64,000 bases of DNA from Candidatus Thermosaccharophagus tengchongensis (GCA_032161105.1 JAVHTD010000006.1); one strand, 5' to 3'. Counted from the stretch's first letter, positions 42,500-56,952 are shown. The notes: generated from the sequence alone by a model not told the origin. Numbers and translations are program-made.

Positions 42500-44005
42500 T
42501 CATTCAATCCCCAACTTGCCAACCCTCCTTTGGATAGCCATCCTGTAGGCGCGCTCATACTCTTGTGCGGAATGCTTCCATGAGTAATCGGCGCTCATGG
42601 CATTCAGCATGGCATTGCGCCACAGCTGTGGCTTGCCGTTATAGATTGAGAGAGCCCTTTCAATTGCGCTCAGCATTTCCGTTGCATCAAACTTGCGGAA
42701 ACAAAAACCATTGCCCTCACCAGTCGCTTCATCCAACTCTTTCACCGTGTCCGCAAGACCGCCGGTGTGATGCACGATTGGCAGCGTCCCATAGCGCATG
42801 CTTATCATTTGACCGAGACCGCATGGCTCATACCTTGACGGCATGAGAAACATATCAGAGCCGGCGTAGATCAAATGCGCCAAAGGCTCATCGTATACGC
42901 CTATGCGCGCGCCAACCTTCGTCGGATACGCTTTGGCGAGGTTGATGAATGCGTTCTCATACCTCTCTTCGCCAGCCCCGAGGATGACCAGTTGCAAGTC
43001 ATGCTTTGAGAGGAGCTCATCGGCGACCTCAATGAGCAAGTCAAATCCCTTCTGCCATGTCAGCCTTGCCACTACCCCAATGACCGGCTTTTGCTCATCA
43101 ACTGGCAGCCCGAGCGATTCTTGGAGATGGACTTTATTCCTGCGCTTCATCTCAATTGTGGAGGCATCGTATCTGGCATGGATGAGCTTGTCCGTCTTCG
43201 GGTTCCAAATCTCGTAGTCAACGCCATTCAGTATCCCAACGAGGTCATTGGAACGGCTTAAGAGCAAACCGTGAAAGCCCTCACCGAACTCCGCTGTCTG
43301 TATCTCCTGAGCATATCTCGGACTAACTGTTGTGAGCATGTCCGAGTAATACAGCCCAGCCTTCATGAACGAAAAGTGACCGTAAAACTCAACACCGTTG
43401 ATGCTGAATGTCTCCCAAGGCAATCCGACATCGCTAAGCAGCGCCGGGGAGAAGTTGCCTTGGTAGCCCAAGTTGTGTATGGTGAACAAAGTGGCAGTCC
43501 GCGCGAAGAAGCCATCATAAAGGTCTGTCGTGTTCAGGTATGCCGGGATAAGCCCAGTTTGCCAGTCGTTGCAGTGAATGACATTTGGTTGAAAGCAAAT
43601 TGCCTTCGCCAATTCAAGCGCTGCCCGACAGAAGAGAGCGAACCTGAGCGCATCGTCGTGGTAGCCGTAAAGGTGTGGGCGGTTGTAGAACTCGGGATAG
43701 TCAAGCAGGTATAGTTCAACGCCGGCGATAGCATAGCATCGTTCAATGCCAACCCTGTAAACGGAGTTGCCGAGCTTGACGGGGAGAGACTTGAAGATGG
43801 TCCTTGTGCGCCACTTGCCCTTGGCGATGGCTTCATACTTCGGGAGCAGCGCACGGACATCGTGCTTTAGCCCCCTTAAAGCCTTCGGAAGCGCCCCGGC
43901 AACATCAGCGAGCCCGCCTGTTTTAGCCAGCGGTGTCATCTCCGAGGCGAGATAGAGTATGCGAAGCCGTCCACTCGCCCTCACGCGTTGGTCAGTTTGA
44001 GACAT
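42500..44005 (-). CDS. glgA: Glycogen synthase
   Basis: KTGGLADV, HCNDWQT, TIHNL.YQG, PSRYEPCGL. Confidence 0.96.
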   Translation of the reverse strand: MSQTDQRVRASGRLRILYLASEMTPLAKTGGLADVAGALPKALRGLKHDVRALLPKYEAIAKGKWRTRTIFKSLPVKLGNSVYRVGIERCYAIAGVELYLLDYPEFYNRPHLYGYHDDALRFALFCRAALELAKAICFQPNVIHCNDWQTGLIPAYLNTTDLYDGFFARTATLFTIHNLGYQGNFSPALLSDVGLPWETFSINGVEFYGHFSFMKAGLYYSDMLTTVSPRYAQEIQTAEFGEGFHGLLLSRSNDLVGILNGVDYEIWNPKTDKLIHARYDASTIEMKRRNKVHLQESLGLPVDEQKPVIGVVARLTWQKGFDLLIEVADELLSKHDLQLVILGAGEERYENAFINLAKAYPTKVGARIGVYDEPLAHLIYAGSDMFLMPSRYEPCGLGQMISMRYGTLPIVHHTGGLADTVKELDEATGEGNGFCFRKFDATEMLSAIERALSIYNGKPQLWRNAMLNAMSADYSWKHSAQEYERAYRMAIQRRVGKLGIE

Positions 44006-44061: not shown

Positions 44062-44454
44062 ATGAGTGTAGCGCAACAAAGGTGCGCGCAGCAATGGGGT
44101 GATGCGAGATTGTTGTTTGAGCGTCTCCCAAAGGACAGGGAGAGGGAAGTCATAGAGCGAATTGCGAGGAGGGTTATAAGTTACGGTTTGGAAGTGCCTG
44201 CAGTTCTTTTCCTTGAGCTCCATAAGCCGCTTGCTAACATTCTCGGTCACGGTCTGCTATTTGCCTTCCCATTCCTCGCCCCGTTCTTCGGAATTACTGC
44301 GTTGCATGAAGCTGGGGCAATATTGAGCACTGCCGATGGCATTGAAGCTCTCATAAAGCGGATTGAGGAACTCGCGTCGGAGAAGCGCTCGCAGAACGAA
44401 TGTAACGAATGTGCCGAAGGCGCGGAGCAAGCCATGACAACAAAATCAAGGTGA
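44062..44454 (+). CDS. Conserved hypothetical protein, first gene of the membrane cluster
   Basis: IERIARRV..YGLEVPAVLFLELHKPL with hydrophobic hairpin; probable start ATG 44062. Confidence 0.7.
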   Translation: MSVAQQRCAQQWGDARLLFERLPKDREREVIERIARRVISYGLEVPAVLFLELHKPLANILGHGLLFAFPFLAPFFGITALHEAGAILSTADGIEALIKRIEELASEKRSQNECNECAEGAEQAMTTKSR

Positions 44455-44532
44455 TGCCATCTCGGCATAGTGTTGTGCGTGCATCCGTGCAGGTGAACAT
44501 GATGGCAATTGTTATGGAAGTTGGTGAGACCG

Positions 44533-45315
44533 ATGGAACATGCACAGCTCATTCACCTGCTTGTTGTGGGCTCCGTCTCTGTGCTCATACTCTACGGGAT
44601 ACTTTCATCGCTGCGTGGCAGGAGCCTTTTCATACGCCGTTTGCCCGGCATTGATGCAATTGAGGAAGCAGTTGGCAGGGCTACGGAAATGGGTCGTCCC
44701 ATACTTTTCTCCGTCGGGCTTGGTGGAGTTGAGATTGAGACATTTCAAGCGCTTGCAATCGCAGGCTATGTGGCGAGGCTCGCCGGGCGGTATAGAAACA
44801 GGGTCATAGTGCCAGTCATTGATACGGTCGTCTACACGATTGCCGAGGAGGTCCTCAGGGAGGCTTATGCTGAGGCTGGTCATCCGGATGCTTTCAGAGC
44901 AGAGGATGTGCGTTTCCTTTCGGGAAGCCAGTTTGCGTATGCGTCTGGTGTCATCGGGATAATGAACCGAGAGAGGGTCGCCGCCAACTTCTTCTTCGGA
45001 CCATTTGCAGCTGAATCGCTCATACTTGCTGAGACGGGGCAATCCCTCGGAGCAATACAAATAGCTGGAACTGCATCAATGCTGCAAGTGCCGTTCTTCA
45101 TTGCCGCATGTGATTACACAATCATCGGCGAGGAATTTTACGCAGCCTCGGCGTATCTGTCACGAGACCCAATACACCTTGGCAGTGTCGCTGGTCAGGA
45201 CTATTCAAAGATACTGCTTGCCGCATTTACGCTCTCTGGGATGACCATTGCCACGCTCTCGCAATACTGGGTTGAACTTAGCAGCTTGCTCAAATTCCTC
45301 ACGGGTGGGCAGTGA
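44533..45315 (+). CDS. DUF6754-like membrane-anchored protein
   Basis: IRRLPG.DAIEEAVGRATEMG, FAAESLILAE, QVPFFIAACDY..IGEE.YAASAY; N- and C-terminal TMs. Confidence 0.8.
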   Translation: MEHAQLIHLLVVGSVSVLILYGILSSLRGRSLFIRRLPGIDAIEEAVGRATEMGRPILFSVGLGGVEIETFQALAIAGYVARLAGRYRNRVIVPVIDTVVYTIAEEVLREAYAEAGHPDAFRAEDVRFLSGSQFAYASGVIGIMNRERVAANFFFGPFAAESLILAETGQSLGAIQIAGTASMLQVPFFIAACDYTIIGEEFYAASAYLSRDPIHLGSVAGQDYSKILLAAFTLSGMTIATLSQYWVELSSLLKFLTGGQ

Positions 45316-45438
45316 CTGCGATGGGCAAATTTTGTGTGGCGCAATGCACATGGGGCTTGCTGTAAAATGAGCGCTGTTACACGGGTGCATTTTGGCTTCG
45401 CCTTATGCGCTCACGCTGTTAGCGAGGAGTGGTGAGGT

Positions 45439-46275
45439 GTGTTTCTGACGGTTGAGAGCATGGCATTGAACATTGCCCTCATGGCTCTTGCAGTTTGCAT
45501 CAGCATCGTCCTGCTCATCGCCTTGCATCACATTACTCCGGCTATGCGCATGCGAGTTATCATCGCCGTCACTTTCATCGCGGGCTTATACTACCCGCTT
45601 GAGTTCTTCATCCCCGACGGCACTGCCCTAACTCCATTCCGCAATCGTTATCTCACTCCGTGGTTGAATCCGCTTGGCGATGCCGTGGCTGTGATGGCTG
45701 CTTTCACAGTTGGGCTTGGAATCATGAACCTTTGCATCGTGCACGCAAGGAACATCGCTCAAAGGCGCGAGGGTTGGGGAAACAGCATTGCCTTCTTTGT
45801 GAGCATGGTGCTCATGTTTGTGGTGACGATGCTCAACCACTATGCGCCACAACTTTTTTCGGGCGAGGTTCCAAGTGGGCGCATTGGTCTTATCCCGGCC
45901 GCATTCAAAGTGCTGTTTGAGGGCGCTTATACGGCGCTCAACGCCACCGTCTTTTCACTGCTCGCCTTTTTCATCACATCGGCTGCCTATAGGGCATTTC
46001 GCATACGCACTGCTGAGGCTGTGTTGCTCATGGCAGGCGCCCTCATAGTCATGCTTGGGCAAGTGCCAGTGGGAATGTGGCTGACTCACTGGATACCGGA
46101 TGACAGCGTCTTCAGATTTTTGAGGTTTGAAGTGATGTCCGAATGGTTGCTATCAAACATAAACATGCCAGCGCAGCGGGGCATACTTTTCGGCGTTTGG
46201 GTTGGTGCACTTGCGATGGCTTTGAGGATATGGCTCAGCCTTGAAAGGGGTGGCTACTTCGGGAGGCAATTCTAA
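45439..46275 (+). CDS. Polytopic membrane protein (about 7 TM), DUF6754 cluster
   Basis: ATVFSLLAFFITSAAYRAFRIR..EA..L, MLGQVP.G, AQRGI..G. Confidence 0.8.
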   Translation: MFLTVESMALNIALMALAVCISIVLLIALHHITPAMRMRVIIAVTFIAGLYYPLEFFIPDGTALTPFRNRYLTPWLNPLGDAVAVMAAFTVGLGIMNLCIVHARNIAQRREGWGNSIAFFVSMVLMFVVTMLNHYAPQLFSGEVPSGRIGLIPAAFKVLFEGAYTALNATVFSLLAFFITSAAYRAFRIRTAEAVLLMAGALIVMLGQVPVGMWLTHWIPDDSVFRFLRFEVMSEWLLSNINMPAQRGILFGVWVGALAMALRIWLSLERGGYFGRQF

Positions 46276-46440
46276 ATGCGTTAATTGCGCATGGGCAGTG
46301 CAGCTATTAAATCTCACGCGGTGGCGTGTTTTAACAATGAGGTTGCCTTGAGGCTGTTGCTTACCGCTGCAAATGAGTGCCAAATGCGCAAGTTAAATGC
46401 GTTGGCGAAGGGAGCGCACTCAAGGGGGGCGATCTTTCGG

Positions 46441-47322
46441 GTGAGTTTAAATCGGTTGGCATCGTCAACACTCATCATGCTCTCTCGTTTTCAGCAGGTG
46501 GACAGGCGAATCATCTATGCGCTCGTTTGGGTTTTGATAGGCTTCCCAATAGTTGCACCATACATCGGCGTGAGGCTGCCAATACTGCCGATGTATCCGA
46601 CAAGGGCAGCACGCTCATTCTTTGAGGCGGTTGAGAGCATCCCAGATGATAAGGTTGTGTTAGTGGCGTGCGACTTTGACCCGGGCACACTCGGTGAAAA
46701 TGGACCACAATGCAGGGCTGTCATAGAGCACTTAATGCGGTGTAGAAAGAAATTCATCATCATGGGGCTTGACCAAGTTGGTCCGACTATAGCTCAGGCA
46801 TATGCTGAGGAGCTTGGGAAAAGATACGGCTATCGCTACGGGGTTGATTATTGCAACTTCGGTTGGATAACTGGCGGGCAGATGTTCCTTGAGAGGATGT
46901 GTCGTGACCTGCATGCCGCAGTTAAACAGGACAAGATGGGCACACCGATTAACGAGATTGCGATGATGCAGAATGTGCGTTCTGCGAAGGATATTGGGCT
47001 TGTCGTTGAGTTTACCGGCTCTGGCTTACTCCCTCTATACATTGCCACATTCCATGCGCAGTTTGGCGTCAAACTCGCGCAGGGCTGCACTGGGATTATC
47101 GGACCGGAGCAATTCCCATACTTGGACACTGGTCAACTTAGTGGCTTACTTGTTGGACTGAAAGGGGCTGCCGAATATGAGGAGATGCTGAAAACGGTTG
47201 GCGGTGGGAAGAGAACAATGCTGCCACAATCTGCCGGTCACTTGCTAATCATTATCCTTGTCCTTCTTGGCAACCTCGGGACATGGGCTGCAAGGCGAGC
47301 GGAGAGAGGGATGAGAGTATGA
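46441..47322 (+). CDS. Membrane-anchored alpha/beta protein, apparent paralogue of the DUF6754 protein
   Basis: DRRIIY, DFDPG..GE, YGVDY.NFGW, PYLDTGQL.GLL.GLKGAAEYE; start 46441 or 46477. Confidence 0.8.
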   Translation: MSLNRLASSTLIMLSRFQQVDRRIIYALVWVLIGFPIVAPYIGVRLPILPMYPTRAARSFFEAVESIPDDKVVLVACDFDPGTLGENGPQCRAVIEHLMRCRKKFIIMGLDQVGPTIAQAYAEELGKRYGYRYGVDYCNFGWITGGQMFLERMCRDLHAAVKQDKMGTPINEIAMMQNVRSAKDIGLVVEFTGSGLLPLYIATFHAQFGVKLAQGCTGIIGPEQFPYLDTGQLSGLLVGLKGAAEYEEMLKTVGGGKRTMLPQSAGHLLIIILVLLGNLGTWAARRAERGMRV

Positions 47323-48398
47323 GCTTGGACGAGCGCACTGTTGAAGTCATCACATACTTTGTGGCAGCTGCGTGCACACTCGGAATATACACAGTCTTAT
47401 ACCGTGAGAACAGACTTTTCAGGCTCTTTGAGCACATATTCATTGGCGTCGCTGCCGGATACGGTCTTGCGATAACGATAACCGAGGTCCTTGACCCAAG
47501 ATGGTTTAAACCGATGGTGACCGAGAATGCCGCCTTGATCAGCGCATGTGACAGTTTAGTCGGTTGGCAAGGCGCCTCACTTGATGAGCGGCTTAAAAAG
47601 GAAGGGAAGGCATCCATCAGGTGGGATGTGAAAGGTATCGGAGCAATTCGCTTTTCTGCACCGCCGTCTAACTGGTCCGATGCCAAGTATCTCAAACTTT
47701 GGGTGCACTCAAGGAAGCCATCTGGCGGGAGTGTGATTGTGCGCGTGGCGACAGCAGATGAGACGGGCAAGGTTAAAGGGTGGCTTAGCAACTCTATACC
47801 AATTGACTTTGCCGGGTGGCGTGAAGTAACGCTCTACATCAGCGAATTCTCAAGGGAAGGCGAAGTGAACTTAAAGACGGTGAGGGTGATTGAGTTTGCA
47901 GCCGATGATGCGCTTATTGCTGCTGGGACAGTTGTGCACATTGACAATGTGCGCCATTGTGTTGGGCGAAAGTGGTATTGGATATTGGCGCTCGTTTGTG
48001 GCTCGCTGTATTACACCATCTTCATCCCAAGGTTCGCGTGGATGAGCCGGTTGATAATCGGTGCTGTGATGGGCTTGCAATCTGGCTACACATTCAAGGC
48101 GTTTGTGCTCACATTTTATCCGCAGATTGCAAAGTCGCTTCGCCCAATATATGTGCCCGGGAACTTATCGCTCACGCTTAACAACATCATCTTCGTTGTC
48201 ACATTGCTCTGCGTGCTCATTTACTTTTTCTTCACCATTGAGCATAAGCATCCGGCGATTAGGACATCGGCTCGCATTGGCAGGCTGCTGTTGATGGTGA
48301 CATTTGGGTTGATATTCGGCAACACAGTGATGGCTCGTTTTTCGCTCTTCATCAAGCGCCTTGACTTCCTCATAACCCAATTCCCGTGGCTCAAATGA
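47319..48398 (+). CDS. Polytopic membrane protein with inserted CBM11/CIA30-like beta-sandwich
   Basis: YRENRLFRLFEHIFIGVAAGY; insert WSDAKYLKLWV...IDFAGWREV...HIDNV; YFFFT.EH, GR..LMVTFG..FGNTVM.R. Confidence 0.75.
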   Translation: MSLDERTVEVITYFVAAACTLGIYTVLYRENRLFRLFEHIFIGVAAGYGLAITITEVLDPRWFKPMVTENAALISACDSLVGWQGASLDERLKKEGKASIRWDVKGIGAIRFSAPPSNWSDAKYLKLWVHSRKPSGGSVIVRVATADETGKVKGWLSNSIPIDFAGWREVTLYISEFSREGEVNLKTVRVIEFAADDALIAAGTVVHIDNVRHCVGRKWYWILALVCGSLYYTIFIPRFAWMSRLIIGAVMGLQSGYTFKAFVLTFYPQIAKSLRPIYVPGNLSLTLNNIIFVVTLLCVLIYFFFTIEHKHPAIRTSARIGRLLLMVTFGLIFGNTVMARFSLFIKRLDFLITQFPWLK

Positions 48399-48516: not shown

Positions 48517-49203
48517 GTGTCTGACAAAAGCGGCGGTGCGCAAAGTGGCATGCGTGCAATAACAGCTGCAGTTGCACTGGCATGCATATTCATGGTTTGT
48601 TCCATTGTGCCAATCGTTAAGCCACTTGAGCGCATTGATGTTGCAGTTCTTAAGATGCTCAATCCAAACTGCGAACACAAGTTTGCTGATGAGTTCATGC
48701 TCGCCGCGACCCGTCTTGGAAAGAATGCGCTCTTTTGGGCGTTGCTGGTCGCATGGCTCTGGTTGTGCAGGGGCTTCAAAGGGATGATACATTCGTTAGT
48801 TGTGCTCCTGCTTGTGATCTCGCTCACGGACTTGCTCGTTGGCAAAGTGGCAAAGGGCTTGTGGAGACGACCTCGTCCGACATCGGTTGAAATGGATGTG
48901 CGCGCGATTGCGCCAACAGGCGGCTCGCCATCGTTCCCGTCAGCACATGCGGCAAATTGGTTTGCGGCTGCAAAGGCGCTCTCAAACTTCGTCCCGGAAG
49001 GCAAGCCATCATTGTTTGCCATTGCATCGCTCGTTGCCTACTCGCGGATATACCTCGGTGTGCACTACCCAAGCGATGTAATTGCAGGGTGCATCATCGG
49101 ATATGCGATGGCATTATTTGTGCTCTCACTGGTGGAACTGATGGCTGTGCGGCTGAAGCAGCATTGTAGCCGGCAAGCGGCAATTCATCGGCATGATTTG
49201 TGA
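48517..49203 (+). CDS. PAP2-family phosphatase (undecaprenyl-PP phosphatase-like)
   Basis: K....RPRP, SFPSAHA, SRIYLGVHYPSDV. Confidence 0.92.
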   Translation: MSDKSGGAQSGMRAITAAVALACIFMVCSIVPIVKPLERIDVAVLKMLNPNCEHKFADEFMLAATRLGKNALFWALLVAWLWLCRGFKGMIHSLVVLLLVISLTDLLVGKVAKGLWRRPRPTSVEMDVRAIAPTGGSPSFPSAHAANWFAAAKALSNFVPEGKPSLFAIASLVAYSRIYLGVHYPSDVIAGCIIGYAMALFVLSLVELMAVRLKQHCSRQAAIHRHDL

Positions 49204-49701: not shown

Positions 49702-50592
49702 TTGAAGGGAAGATGGATTATGGCGGTCATATGGAAGGCGGGTAATGCACTGGTGGCATCTGTAACTGTTGTGTGCCTCTTAGTTGTATGGCTGTTTGGT
49801 GCGGCAACGGCGGCGTATCCTCAGCAGGAACAGCCAGCTGAAGGTGTGGAAAAGCCAAAGGGCATTGAGGTTGAGGAGCCGAAGTTCACCGAGACATTTG
49901 ATGGCGGCGTTATAGACCTGAAAATTTTCCCCGAGGTGAATCGCCCACAGGGGACAAGGGTCGCTGTTGAAGATGGGCAACTCGTAATGAGTGGGCGCGC
50001 ACAGAAGGGTCAATCAGTGACTGTGAATGTAGCGACGGCGCCATTGCCGATACAGCCACTTGAAGTGAGCGTCAAGGTCATGCTGGTCAAACTTCCATTT
50101 GGAGCTATGTGCGGCGTTTACATTTCAAATGCCACGCCGAAGGGTGAGGAGACATCCAACGGCGCTGCTGTTGATGTTGACCATCTCGGCAAGGATGCAA
50201 GGTATGTGCTTTGGCTATGCGACAATAAGCGCTGGAGGGATGTGGCAGCGAGGGCAAGACTGCTCTTCGGCGACGAGGCGGAGAAATGGCATGTCCTCAA
50301 GATAGCGTTTGATGGAAAGGACAGGTTTGAGGCGTTCGTTGACGGGCTGTCGTTGGGCACAGGCAGGGTTGATTTGAAGAGTGAGCAGATTGAAATTGGG
50401 CTTTTCGTCTTCACGACTGGTCAGGAGGAAGTGGAATTTGATGTCAGGTTTGACGACTTTAAGACGACGCTGCCAATAAAGGAATTGGTTGAAGGGAAGG
50501 CGCAGAAGGAAGAGCAACCGAAGGCGGAGGAGCAACCGAAGGCGGAGGGAGAAAAACAGGAGGCGCAGGGGCAGGAGGGCGGCGCAGGGTAG
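49702..50592 (+). CDS. Exported beta-sandwich (ConA/laminin-G-like) hypothetical protein
   Basis: Signal peptide; WHVLKIAFDG....FVDG, FDDF; acidic tail with 18-bp repeat at 50512-50547. Confidence 0.6.
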   Translation: MKGRWIMAVIWKAGNALVASVTVVCLLVVWLFGAATAAYPQQEQPAEGVEKPKGIEVEEPKFTETFDGGVIDLKIFPEVNRPQGTRVAVEDGQLVMSGRAQKGQSVTVNVATAPLPIQPLEVSVKVMLVKLPFGAMCGVYISNATPKGEETSNGAAVDVDHLGKDARYVLWLCDNKRWRDVAARARLLFGDEAEKWHVLKIAFDGKDRFEAFVDGLSLGTGRVDLKSEQIEIGLFVFTTGQEEVEFDVRFDDFKTTLPIKELVEGKAQKEEQPKAEEQPKAEGEKQEAQGQEGGAG

Positions 50593-55829: not shown

Positions 55830-56952
55830 TTGCCGAGCGCAAGGGAAATCGCAAGAGAGGCAGAGCAGTTGCTCATCCAGCTTAAAGAGCTGGGTGATTG
55901 CCTTTGACCTGCCAAGGAAGCGAATGGAGTTGGAGCAATTGAGGGGGCGAATCAATGAGCCGGATTTTTGGGTCACCGAAAAGGATCCGCAAGACATCCT
56001 GCGCAAGGTTAAAGAGCTGCAATCGGAACTTGAGCCGTGGGACGAAATTGATAAGAGCACAAGGGAGCTTTTGGCTCTTGCCGAGTTGGCTGCCGAGGAG
56101 GATGACGAGAGCCTCAATGCGGAGCTTGAAGCCGACCTAAAGTCAATCAGGCAAAAGTTTGAGGAGCTTGAGTTGCGTACGCTGCTAAGCGGTGAGCACG
56201 ATGAGAAAAATGCCATTCTGTCAATAAACCCGGGCGCAGGCGGAGTTGACGCAATGGATTGGGCTGAGATGCTCGCAAGAATGTATCGCATGTGGGCGCA
56301 GCGCAGAGGCTATGAGTTCAGAGTGGTTGAAGTCCTCCCCGGCGAGCAAGCGGGCATAAAGGCTTTCACAGCGCTCGTCATAGGTCCATATGCCTACGGT
56401 TACTTGAAAGCCGAAAAGGGTGTTCACAGGCTCGTGCGCATATCGCCGTTTGACTTCAACAGGAGGAGGCATACTTCATTCGCATCGGTGGATGTCATTC
56501 CGGAGATAGGCGATGAGATAAAGGTTGAGATAAATCCGGAGGACATTCGCATTGAGACTTTTCGCGCCAGCGGGCACGGCGGGCAGCATGTTAACACGAC
56601 TGACTCCGCGGTCCGCATCACGCACATCCCGACTGGCATCGTTGTCACATGTCAAGCTGAGAGGTCACAGTTGCGCAACAGGCAAATCGCAATGGAAGTG
56701 TTGCGCTCGCGGCTCTATGAGTATGAGCGCAGGAAGCGACAGGAGGAAATTGAGAGGCTAAGGGGTGAGAGGAAGGAGATAAGCTTCGGCAGCCAAATAA
56801 GGAGCTACATCTTGCACCCATACATGCTCGTAAAAGACCACCGCACAGAAGTTGAGAAGACGGATGTTGAAGCAGTGCTCAACGGTGAGATTGACGAGTT
56901 CATCAATGCATACCTTAAAGCATGCGGAGGTGGTAACGGTGAGCGCCGTTGA
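55830..56952 (+). CDS. prfB: Peptide chain release factor 2 (programmed +1 frameshift at 55902-55908)
   Basis: Frame 0 from TTG 55830 to CTT TGA C; +1 frame carries SPF and GGQ motifs. Confidence 0.96.

Follow-up and report, generated by a model that had tools for sequence, protein, structure and literature searches.

We found that a region of Candidatus Thermosaccharophagus tengchongensis, at positions 44062-48398 of a 64,000-nucleotide stretch of DNA given as one strand (GCA_032161105.1 JAVHTD010000006.1; hereafter the window), encodes five proteins, A to E, of a conserved membrane system. Judging from sequence, we consider it likely that B, C, D, and E assemble into a single solute-importing complex of the inner membrane. 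Its likely driver is a separately encoded module that comprises the small protein A, an ATPase of the actin fold (ASKHA), F, and a partner of that ATPase, G. The explanation that we prefer, with slightly less than even confidence, is that A-E and F-G constitute an ATP-driven importer following the logic of energy-coupling factor (ECF) transporters with unrelated parts: a shared ATPase module and exchangeable membrane cassettes. The region is filled exactly by five open reading frames (ORFs) on the + strand, as anticipated by an original prediction of five co-oriented genes with the last two coupled by an ATGA overlap. Their features are as follows.

44062-44454, + strand: gene A, 130 aa, of which about 100 form the family core; small, helical, and weakly hydrophobic along a single stretch
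44533-45315, + strand: gene B, 260 aa from ATG; DUF6754; transmembrane (TM) helix, Rossmann-like domain, TM helix
44509, + strand: alternative TTG start of gene B, given by the ORF tool
44638-45165, + strand: predicted cytoplasmic six-stranded Rossmann-like domain of B, about residues 36-211; side predicted from charge bias
45439-46275, + strand: gene C, 278 aa; polytopic membrane protein
46441 (GTG) or 46477 (ATG) to 47322, + strand: gene D, 293 or 281 aa; TM helix, Rossmann-like domain, TM helix
46594-47196, + strand: predicted extracytoplasmic Rossmann-like domain of D, about residues 40-240 counted from the ATG at 46477; candidate ligand-capture domain
47319-47322, + strand: ATGA overlap of the D stop and E start
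47319-48398, + strand: gene E, 359 aa; polytopic, about six TM segments, with an inserted domain
47517-47960, + strand: galactose-binding-like (CBM-type) insert in a loop of E that is predicted to be outside (residues ~67-214)

A conserved four-gene unit

Genes A-E are genuine genes, far beyond chance ORFs, because homologues are kept across loci. The sample comprised the best 80 of 466 confirmed loci and leans towards close relatives; in it, homologues were present for B in 80, C in 78, D in 76, E in 75, and A in 43. The order B-C-D-E was invariable where found, and all four genes occurred in 75 of the 80 loci. Three of the five incomplete loci break off at contig ends. The other two are true exceptions, one having an orphan B (L065) and the other B with a long C (L074), and neither has D or E within 10 kb. 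The heteromeric unit originally proposed, with two soluble-domain and two polytopic subunits, is thus kept as a conserved unit of four genes rather than five: homologues of B, C, D, and E do co-occur in other genomes in fixed order, but A is variable in its placement.

When present, A lay upstream of B (34 loci) or beside a gene for a GlmL-like ATPase (9 loci). It adjoins B in Armatimonadota and the ATPase gene in other phyla, and it goes with the ATPase module, of which it is likely a peripheral adaptor. A had been described as a small hydrophobic hairpin; it is small, but its single weakly hydrophobic stretch (1.8 for the single sequence and 1.5 for the family mean) does not bear out a hairpin. 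Its relatives number 3209 at E ≤ 0.001. The source genome carries one copy each of A, B, C, D, and E. Given gaps of 78 bp between A and B, 123 bp between B and C, and 165-201 bp between C and D, co-transcription of A-E in the source genome is something that we infer. Promoter and terminator counts in the region were not above those of shuffled sequence, and four sequencing runs compared with the region yielded four reads in total and none inside B-E, which is too few to count as a test.

Profile searches on each ORF identified B as DUF6754 and placed A, C, D, and E in no Pfam or NCBIfam family above cut-off. The expected lack of ABC, MFS, TRAP, and ECF signatures was borne out by Pfam and NCBIfam searches of the ORFs and their homologues. 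Unlike ABC importers, the system has no match to an ABC ATPase, ABC membrane domain, or binding protein in A-E, and the linked ATPase F is ASKHA-fold. Nor did Pfam consistently assign C or E, over their alignments, to MFS, TRAP, or another catalogued family of secondary carriers; at most 3 of 59 C homologues and at most 3 of 62 E homologues have a Pfam family in common.

Architecture of the membrane proteins

B is a full-length member of Pfam DUF6754 (PF20539), which is catalogued and uncharacterized (326.9 bits against a cut-off of 27, covering profile positions 9-253 of 257). This family covers B alone, and the other four proteins belong to none. The closest named match to B, at 89% identity, is from a Candidatus Thermosaccharophagus contig; most top matches are Armatimonadota, identity across phyla is 45-55%, and one search returned more than 1300 long-form relatives. 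AlphaFold models of B (pLDDT 95.8) and D (pLDDT 96.5) confirm the TM - alpha/beta - TM architecture that had been proposed for these two proteins. In both models, a TM helix and a second helix precede six strands interspersed with helices, after which come another helix and a TM helix.

The two domains are predicted to lie on opposite faces of the membrane. For B, the mean number of K+R was 0.17 before the first TM segment and 4.4 after, whereas for D it was 3.1 before the first TM segment, 0.6 after it, and 3.7 after the last. Three of the 120 long B proteins listed (P0176, P0205, and P0179) contain a D-type domain between an N-terminal hydrophobic, signal-like segment and the first TM helix of B (full-sequence E from 1e-19 to 1e-67). 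These natural fusions link D to B and place the D domain on the exported side. Because of the charge bias and the fusions, the Rossmann-like domain of B is predicted to be inside (cytoplasmic) and that of D outside (extracytoplasmic). Among the same 120 proteins, 100 were N-terminally extended, 21 were C-terminally extended, and 110 started with a hydrophobic stretch; PQQ-type propellers and FN3, PKD, Ig, and OmpA-like domains are among the additions. There were also five weak matches to the E profile (E ~1e-4 to 1e-3). More generally, the outer faces of the system carry swappable FN3, beta-propeller, PKD, Ig, OmpA-like, and CBM-like domains, although B of the window has no outer domain at its N-terminus, whether FN3 or another, as is common in DUF6754 proteins of other phyla. 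None of the 120 long B proteins was fused to A, C, F, or G, so the link between B-C-D-E and F-G is drawn from operons and co-occurrence only.

Searches with D retrieved 338 homologues, with no match in Pfam, NCBIfam, or the PDB sequence search and only unnamed clusters in the ESM Atlas; a wide structural (VIA) search gave a generic Rossmann fold as its best result (Z 9.8). The top homologues of D and E bear Fervidibacter-type names and, together with the matches of B, suggest that the host belongs in or near Fervidibacteria. That C and E are polytopic, as originally predicted, was supported by hydropathy. Family-averaged hydropathy of C has seven segments, corresponding to a six-TM core plus one additional N-terminal TM segment in Armatimonadota-type rows, and the N-terminus of the core is predicted to be inside. 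Family averaging for E gave five clear TM segments, with a sixth, Gly-rich segment visible in the single-sequence scan only; E is predicted to have about six TM segments with its N-terminus outside. Neither C nor the core of E matched a family, and the PDB sequence searches with C and the E profile returned no match.

Conserved polar residues lie in or at the membrane segments of all four proteins. In C, the conserved residues are H102, R185, E193, N242, R247, and E269, all but the last being listed in or at TM segments. In E, they are T20, N31, E38, R244, R340, and R347, and the polar residues in or at TM segments are T20, E38, H39, T336, R340, and R347. The corresponding residues are Q222, D223, and K226 in B, and H255 and N266 in D.

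The original prediction had not mentioned a soluble insert of about 150 aa in E. Its matches to Pfam Lyase_N (E 2.5e-5) and CBM_11 (E 0.002) do not reach the cut-offs, and its Atlas neighbors at 0.91 are the galactose-binding-like families CBM30, Exop_C, and Lyase_N. The insert of E, like the large inserts of C homologues, falls in a predicted outer loop. Whole-length coverage of E was limited to the closest 31 of 120 listed homologues, the other 89 covering at most half, and the insert therefore appears to be a trait of the source lineage. It may capture glycans or merely anchor the complex.

Fold of the B domain

The best structural match to the B domain was the sirtuin (DHS-like) nucleotide-binding fold of Sir2Af2 (VIA-align Z 12.5, rmsd 3.3, 142 aligned residues), with the best non-sirtuin row of that comparison at Z 10.7. 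A wide VIA search with B reached at best Z 10.4, with many ties at Z 9-10 among SDRs, RCK domains, and transhydrogenase domain III. Foldseek against the PDB gave no match for B or D at E ≤ 0.001, and the PDB sequence search with the B profile gave nothing significant. B superposes on sirtuins, RCK domains (Z ~10), and transhydrogenase domain III (Z 9.6), but differs from all three in having no sequence match to them and in being anchored by a TM helix at both ends. It also differs from sirtuins in missing their zinc-binding cysteine pairs and catalytic His, as C193 is its sole conserved Cys and it has no conserved His.

These fold neighbors bear on two alternatives to an importer. It is unlikely, in our judgment, that the system is a transmembrane sensor in which D and the variable outer domains would bind a ligand, C and E would transmit the signal, and B would switch the F-G ATPase on a cytoplasmic target. 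The highly variable outer accessory domains, the nucleotide-binding-type fold of B near sirtuin and RCK domains, and the feeding of many cassettes into a single cytoplasmic module are all in keeping with sensing. However, no kinase, cyclase, DNA-binding, or other output domain was fused to B in the 120 long forms or found as a conserved neighbor, and about 16 TM helices with conserved buried charges would seem to exceed what a sensor usually needs. Far less probable is a complex like transhydrogenase or Rnf/Nqr that performs redox chemistry or pumps ions and binds NAD(P) through B. Such a complex could account for the similarity to transhydrogenase domain III, for a weak match of G to the RnfC barrel-sandwich (E 7.6e-5), and for the conserved His, Glu, and Arg in the membrane. 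Yet domain III is just one of many tied Rossmann matches, and B-E have no cysteine set suited to a metal cluster, with no conserved Cys in C, D, or E and one in B. Kinship of B with the transhydrogenase subunit PntB, an idea that came from motifs, found no support, given an hhalign probability of 0.3% against one PntB sequence and the lack of a PF02233 match in B.

Possible pseudo-symmetry of two halves

B and D have the same architecture and are predicted to be oppositely oriented, as reflected in their identical order of secondary structure, their opposed charge bias, and the exported position of D domains in B fusions. C and E are likewise predicted from charge bias to be oppositely oriented. 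Comparison of profiles gave hhalign probabilities of 1.2% for B-D and 0.5% for C-E, and trimmed profiles performed no better than reversed controls. Sequence paralogy of B with D and of C with E was therefore set aside as unsupported.

Two inverted halves, B-C and D-E, might constitute a self-sufficient secondary carrier or channel, leaving F, G, and A only to process the imported compound. We regard this as quite improbable. The opposed orientations, the RCK domains among the fold neighbors of B, and a Bacillota cassette without F, G, or A (genome G140, below) would fit such a carrier, but the profile comparisons do not, B is conserved as much as G, and the finding of one F-G pair with five divergent cassettes is hard to reconcile with a single substrate-specific enzyme.

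The ATPase F and its partner G

The original prediction had placed some similar clusters beside a GlmL-like ASKHA ATPase that it deemed not present here. The association was substantiated by co-occurrence and operons, whereas the absence applies to the window only: a search of the source genome located F on another contig (C9:84193-85968, 59% identity to the L051 copy) and its partner G on a third (C14:28054-29175, 50% identity). Both F (~600 aa) and G (375 aa) were present in 10 of the 80 loci, and complete A-B-C-D-E-F-G operons occur in a Bacillota genome (L117) and in a genome of the window's phylum (L130). Identity across phyla was 45-59% for B, F, and G versus 29-39% for most segments of C, D, and E, and the high conservation of the former fits a conserved cytoplasmic interface.

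F scored 449 bits against Pfam MutL and fell below three NCBIfam cut-offs (258 versus 475, 238 versus 600, and 198.6 versus 204.05), among them neither GlmL nor Or-4 nor TIGR01319 being reached. It contains DCGSTTTK at residue 10, DIGGATTD at 288, and GSGGVL at 421, nearly all invariant in 49 sequences; we take DCGSTTTK, DIGGATTD, and GSGG to be the ASKHA phosphate 1, phosphate 2, and adenosine motifs, respectively. No solved structure matched F in the PDB sequence search. In its ASKHA motifs and its match to Pfam MutL, F resembles GlmL/MutL (PF13941, NF040745, TIGR01319) and Or-4 (NF040744), the accessory ATPases of B12 mutases. It differs in being about 130-150 aa longer and in co-occurring with G and DUF6754, while 48 Bacillota genomes (G140 among them) with only weaker GlmL-family matches (E 1e-25 to 1e-53) have no full-length B. 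The glutamate mutase E gene (PF06368) was not found in the 97% complete source genome, by a search whose control rang only weakly, and a search for the aminomutase PF09043 matched nowhere at all and hence carries no information. We also weighed whether the system might handle B12, as GlmL would suggest, and dropped the idea: conserved His is missing from B, and neither a B12-binding motif nor a B12-domain query was matched in the source genome.

Diol dehydratase reactivase DdrAB and hydantoinase/oxoprolinase A combine an ASKHA ATPase with a swivelling beta/beta/alpha-type domain, and act on soluble enzymes or small molecules with no membrane cassette. F-G is reminiscent of these systems in that RraA (E 0.075) appears among the matches of G in the PDB sequence search, all of them weak, and in that five genomes encode F and G together in a single ORF of 868-947 aa. 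These fusions (L176:2270-5068, L177:6968-9808, L178:6304-9075, L179:6788-9565, and L180:6438-9041) are divergent second copies. The ATP motifs were intact in the four checked, the stretches fetched contained no B-C-D-E cassette, and two of the fusions lie near genes resembling, by eye, what are presumably the alpha and beta subunits of a sodium-pumping decarboxylase. Next to G on contig C14 of the source genome, a gene for a DUF362-like protein (L102:9179-10333) shares four bases with the end of G, and a prepilin peptidase gene comes after it; a further DUF362 gene lies 3 kb upstream of the complete L117 operon.

Co-occurrence of cassettes and the ATPase module

Among 41 genomes of the window's phylum, B was found in 35, F in 35, and G in 36, and most genomes were single-copy for the system. 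Within 17 more distant genomes of this phylum, 13 had B, F, and G together, three (G026, G029, and G032; 93-99% complete) were without all of them, and one (G025) had F and G only. Neither A nor D was found in these four genomes, using a search for A that was shown able to ring and a search for D without a positive control. Full-length B was present in nine of 151 genomes of Bacillota (the phylum of G041), all nine of which had a long F (E < 1e-100) and G; the exception to co-occurrence was G053, with G and a split F but no B. The corresponding Fisher value of 1e-13 is overstated, as kin are not independent. F and G without a detected cassette were observed at L132:8825-11388, where the F match of G053 is split into two parts, and at L131 in G025.

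The pattern was most regular in the class of G044, where 121 of 121 genomes had B (2-10 matches, mostly five), 120 had F, and 119 had G, with F and G nearly always occurring once. In three inspected genomes of this class, the five cassettes were complete B-C-D-E sets in matching places: three stood in a tandem array and the other two lay apart from it. Cassettes expand further in Bacillota, to about 11-16 matches per genome. The pairing of one F-G with several cassettes per genome in the 121-genome class fits a module that these cassettes would share. ECF transporters of group II have a shared EcfAA'T module and exchangeable S components, and the likeness lies in one conserved ATPase module with several divergent cassettes scattered in the genome. 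The differences are that F is ASKHA-fold rather than ABC, that C and E have no Pfam match to EcfT/CbiQ or S components, and that the cassette here comprises four proteins with soluble domains on both faces.

Proposed mechanism and points against it

If the system is an importer, the outer Rossmann-like domain of D would capture the ligand, with help in this lineage from the insert of E, which resembles carbohydrate-binding domains. C and E, with 6+6 helices and conserved buried His, Glu, and Arg, may form the path, and the highly conserved inner domain of B could serve as the docking and release site where F-G, with A, would act with ATP. ASKHA release factors provide the analogy for this last step, in which ATP turnover by F would release or pull the ligand. 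As in ECF transporters, but with unrelated proteins, a number of exchangeable cassettes would draw on a common ATPase module.

Gene neighborhoods offer a hint of the substrate, and no more than a hint. Of 14 Bacillota loci chosen by their B matches, 9 had a peptidase or amidase within 3 kb, and our weak best guess is that the family imports small peptides or amide-like compounds. In the count by ORF given below, two of the near peptidases were weak M20 matches, a match to a phage-repressor S24 was left out, and five near ORFs were judged from the L121 and L122 orthologues. PmbA/TldD peptidase genes also adjoin cassettes in Zixibacteria-type and Bacillota loci (L051, L058, L061, L067, L118, and L134).

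Several results weigh against an importer with a shared energizer. Counted by ORF, peptidases were not significantly enriched near the cassettes (14/71 near versus 7/69 farther; Fisher p = 0.16), and the neighbors in the window, a glycogen synthase and a PAP2 phosphatase, are not catabolic. To our knowledge, no ASKHA ATPase has been shown to power a transporter. The copy numbers expected of an ECF-type shared energizer fit the 121 genomes of one class but not G120 (Bacillota), which has four long F and one B, and several Bacillota have more than one F-G pair. Expansion of F-G pairs rather than cassettes in these genomes does not fit a simple shared energizer. In addition, G140 has a strongly diverged B-C-D-E cassette (L116:6514-9269) with no long F, G, or A, which is either a decaying copy or an ATPase-independent form. 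Finally, the presence of the system in every genome of one class, together with flat expression of the F-annotated gene on eight polysaccharides in Fervidibacter sacchari, looks more like housekeeping than nutrient-specific uptake.

The expression data are those in the examined files of a study of F. sacchari (PMC11535203), in which the name DUF6754 was absent. On the strength of its name and Pfam label, a gene called 'glutamate mutase L' was taken as the F orthologue. According to these files, it had 1427-1955 normalized counts on eight polysaccharides (adjusted p 0.006) and stood at row 548 of a table ordered by descending mean, the text giving 3579 expressed genes, with no significant change in the proteome (adjusted p 0.125) (PMC11535203).

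These observations could also be explained by an envelope housekeeping machine, which we consider somewhat unlikely. F-G would then be an ATP-dependent enzyme or remodeler, similar to hydantoinase/oxoprolinase or a GlmL-like release factor, B would hold the substrate or client on which it acts, and an envelope component would be exported, flipped, or modified by B-C-D-E. Weak similarity of F to Hydantoinase_A (E 2.8e-5) and its many invariant His and Cys residues favor this idea, as do the stable paralogous cassettes in 121 of 121 genomes of one class, the single copies in most of the window's phylum, the near-constant expression in the F. sacchari files, and the diversification of F-G paralogues independently of B. 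On the other hand, no biosynthetic neighbor recurs across phyla, and the patchy presence in Bacillota (10/151 genomes), with up to 16 cassette matches, resembles that of substrate-specific systems.

Neighboring genes and other features of the window

The cassette in the window is flanked by a glycogen synthase gene (42500-44005), divergent from A with 56 bp between start codons, and by a PAP2 phosphatase gene after E (48517-49203). PAP2, S4, and glycogen synthase genes were considered as parts of the system and rejected as passengers, since they occurred in 1, 1, and 0 of the 80 loci, respectively. Elsewhere in this sample, a TonB-dependent receptor gene followed the cassette in six loci (L049, L050, L056, L075, L082, and L090) and ExbB/ExbD-like genes were found in four; the receptor is a possible outer-membrane partner in those lineages. 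Genes resembling the glycine cleavage system, named by eye, lay within 10 kb of the cassette in 6-8 of the 80 loci from several phyla (L033, L034, L036, L043, L055, L075, L082, and L090).

Three further features of the window were observed. A 296-aa protein at 49702-50592, which neither Pfam nor NCBIfam matched, starts with a hydrophobic stretch at its N-terminus and has a tail that is acidic and repetitive. Between 22000 and 32000, G+C drops to 0.43-0.48 from ~0.53 elsewhere and the skew changes, marking what is possibly an acquired region. A release factor 2-like ORF after secA (55894-56952) seemingly misses its first residues, and the programmed frameshift that is usual for release factor 2 would account for this.

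Novelty and implications

We found no published description of the system, in a search to which subscription journals and bioRxiv supplements were external; there were no papers on DUF6754 or PF20539, and those on GlmL concern known mutases. From its sequences, the system appears new in composition, and we put forward its mechanism as a hypothesis. More tentatively than the importer itself, we suggest that primary active transporters include a class not described before. In it, an ATPase of the actin/Hsp70 fold, shared among interchangeable cassettes, would power a pseudo-symmetric cassette of four subunits whose twin Rossmann-like domains face opposite sides of the membrane; the system would belong to the core of whole bacterial classes and have gone unseen under the label 'glutamate mutase L'.

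The source lineage is practical for study: each genome has a single copy, the proteins are heat-stable, and a relative in culture, F. sacchari, has public transcriptomes and proteomes. Even under the alternatives considered here, labeling F as 'glutamate mutase L' misleads metabolic reconstruction of uncultured phyla. We could find no description of these seven proteins as a system, although nearly all members of some bacterial classes have it, and, if an ASKHA ATPase does energize its membrane complex, the principle of coupling would be one that ABC, ECF, P-type, PTS, and ion-driven carriers do not use.

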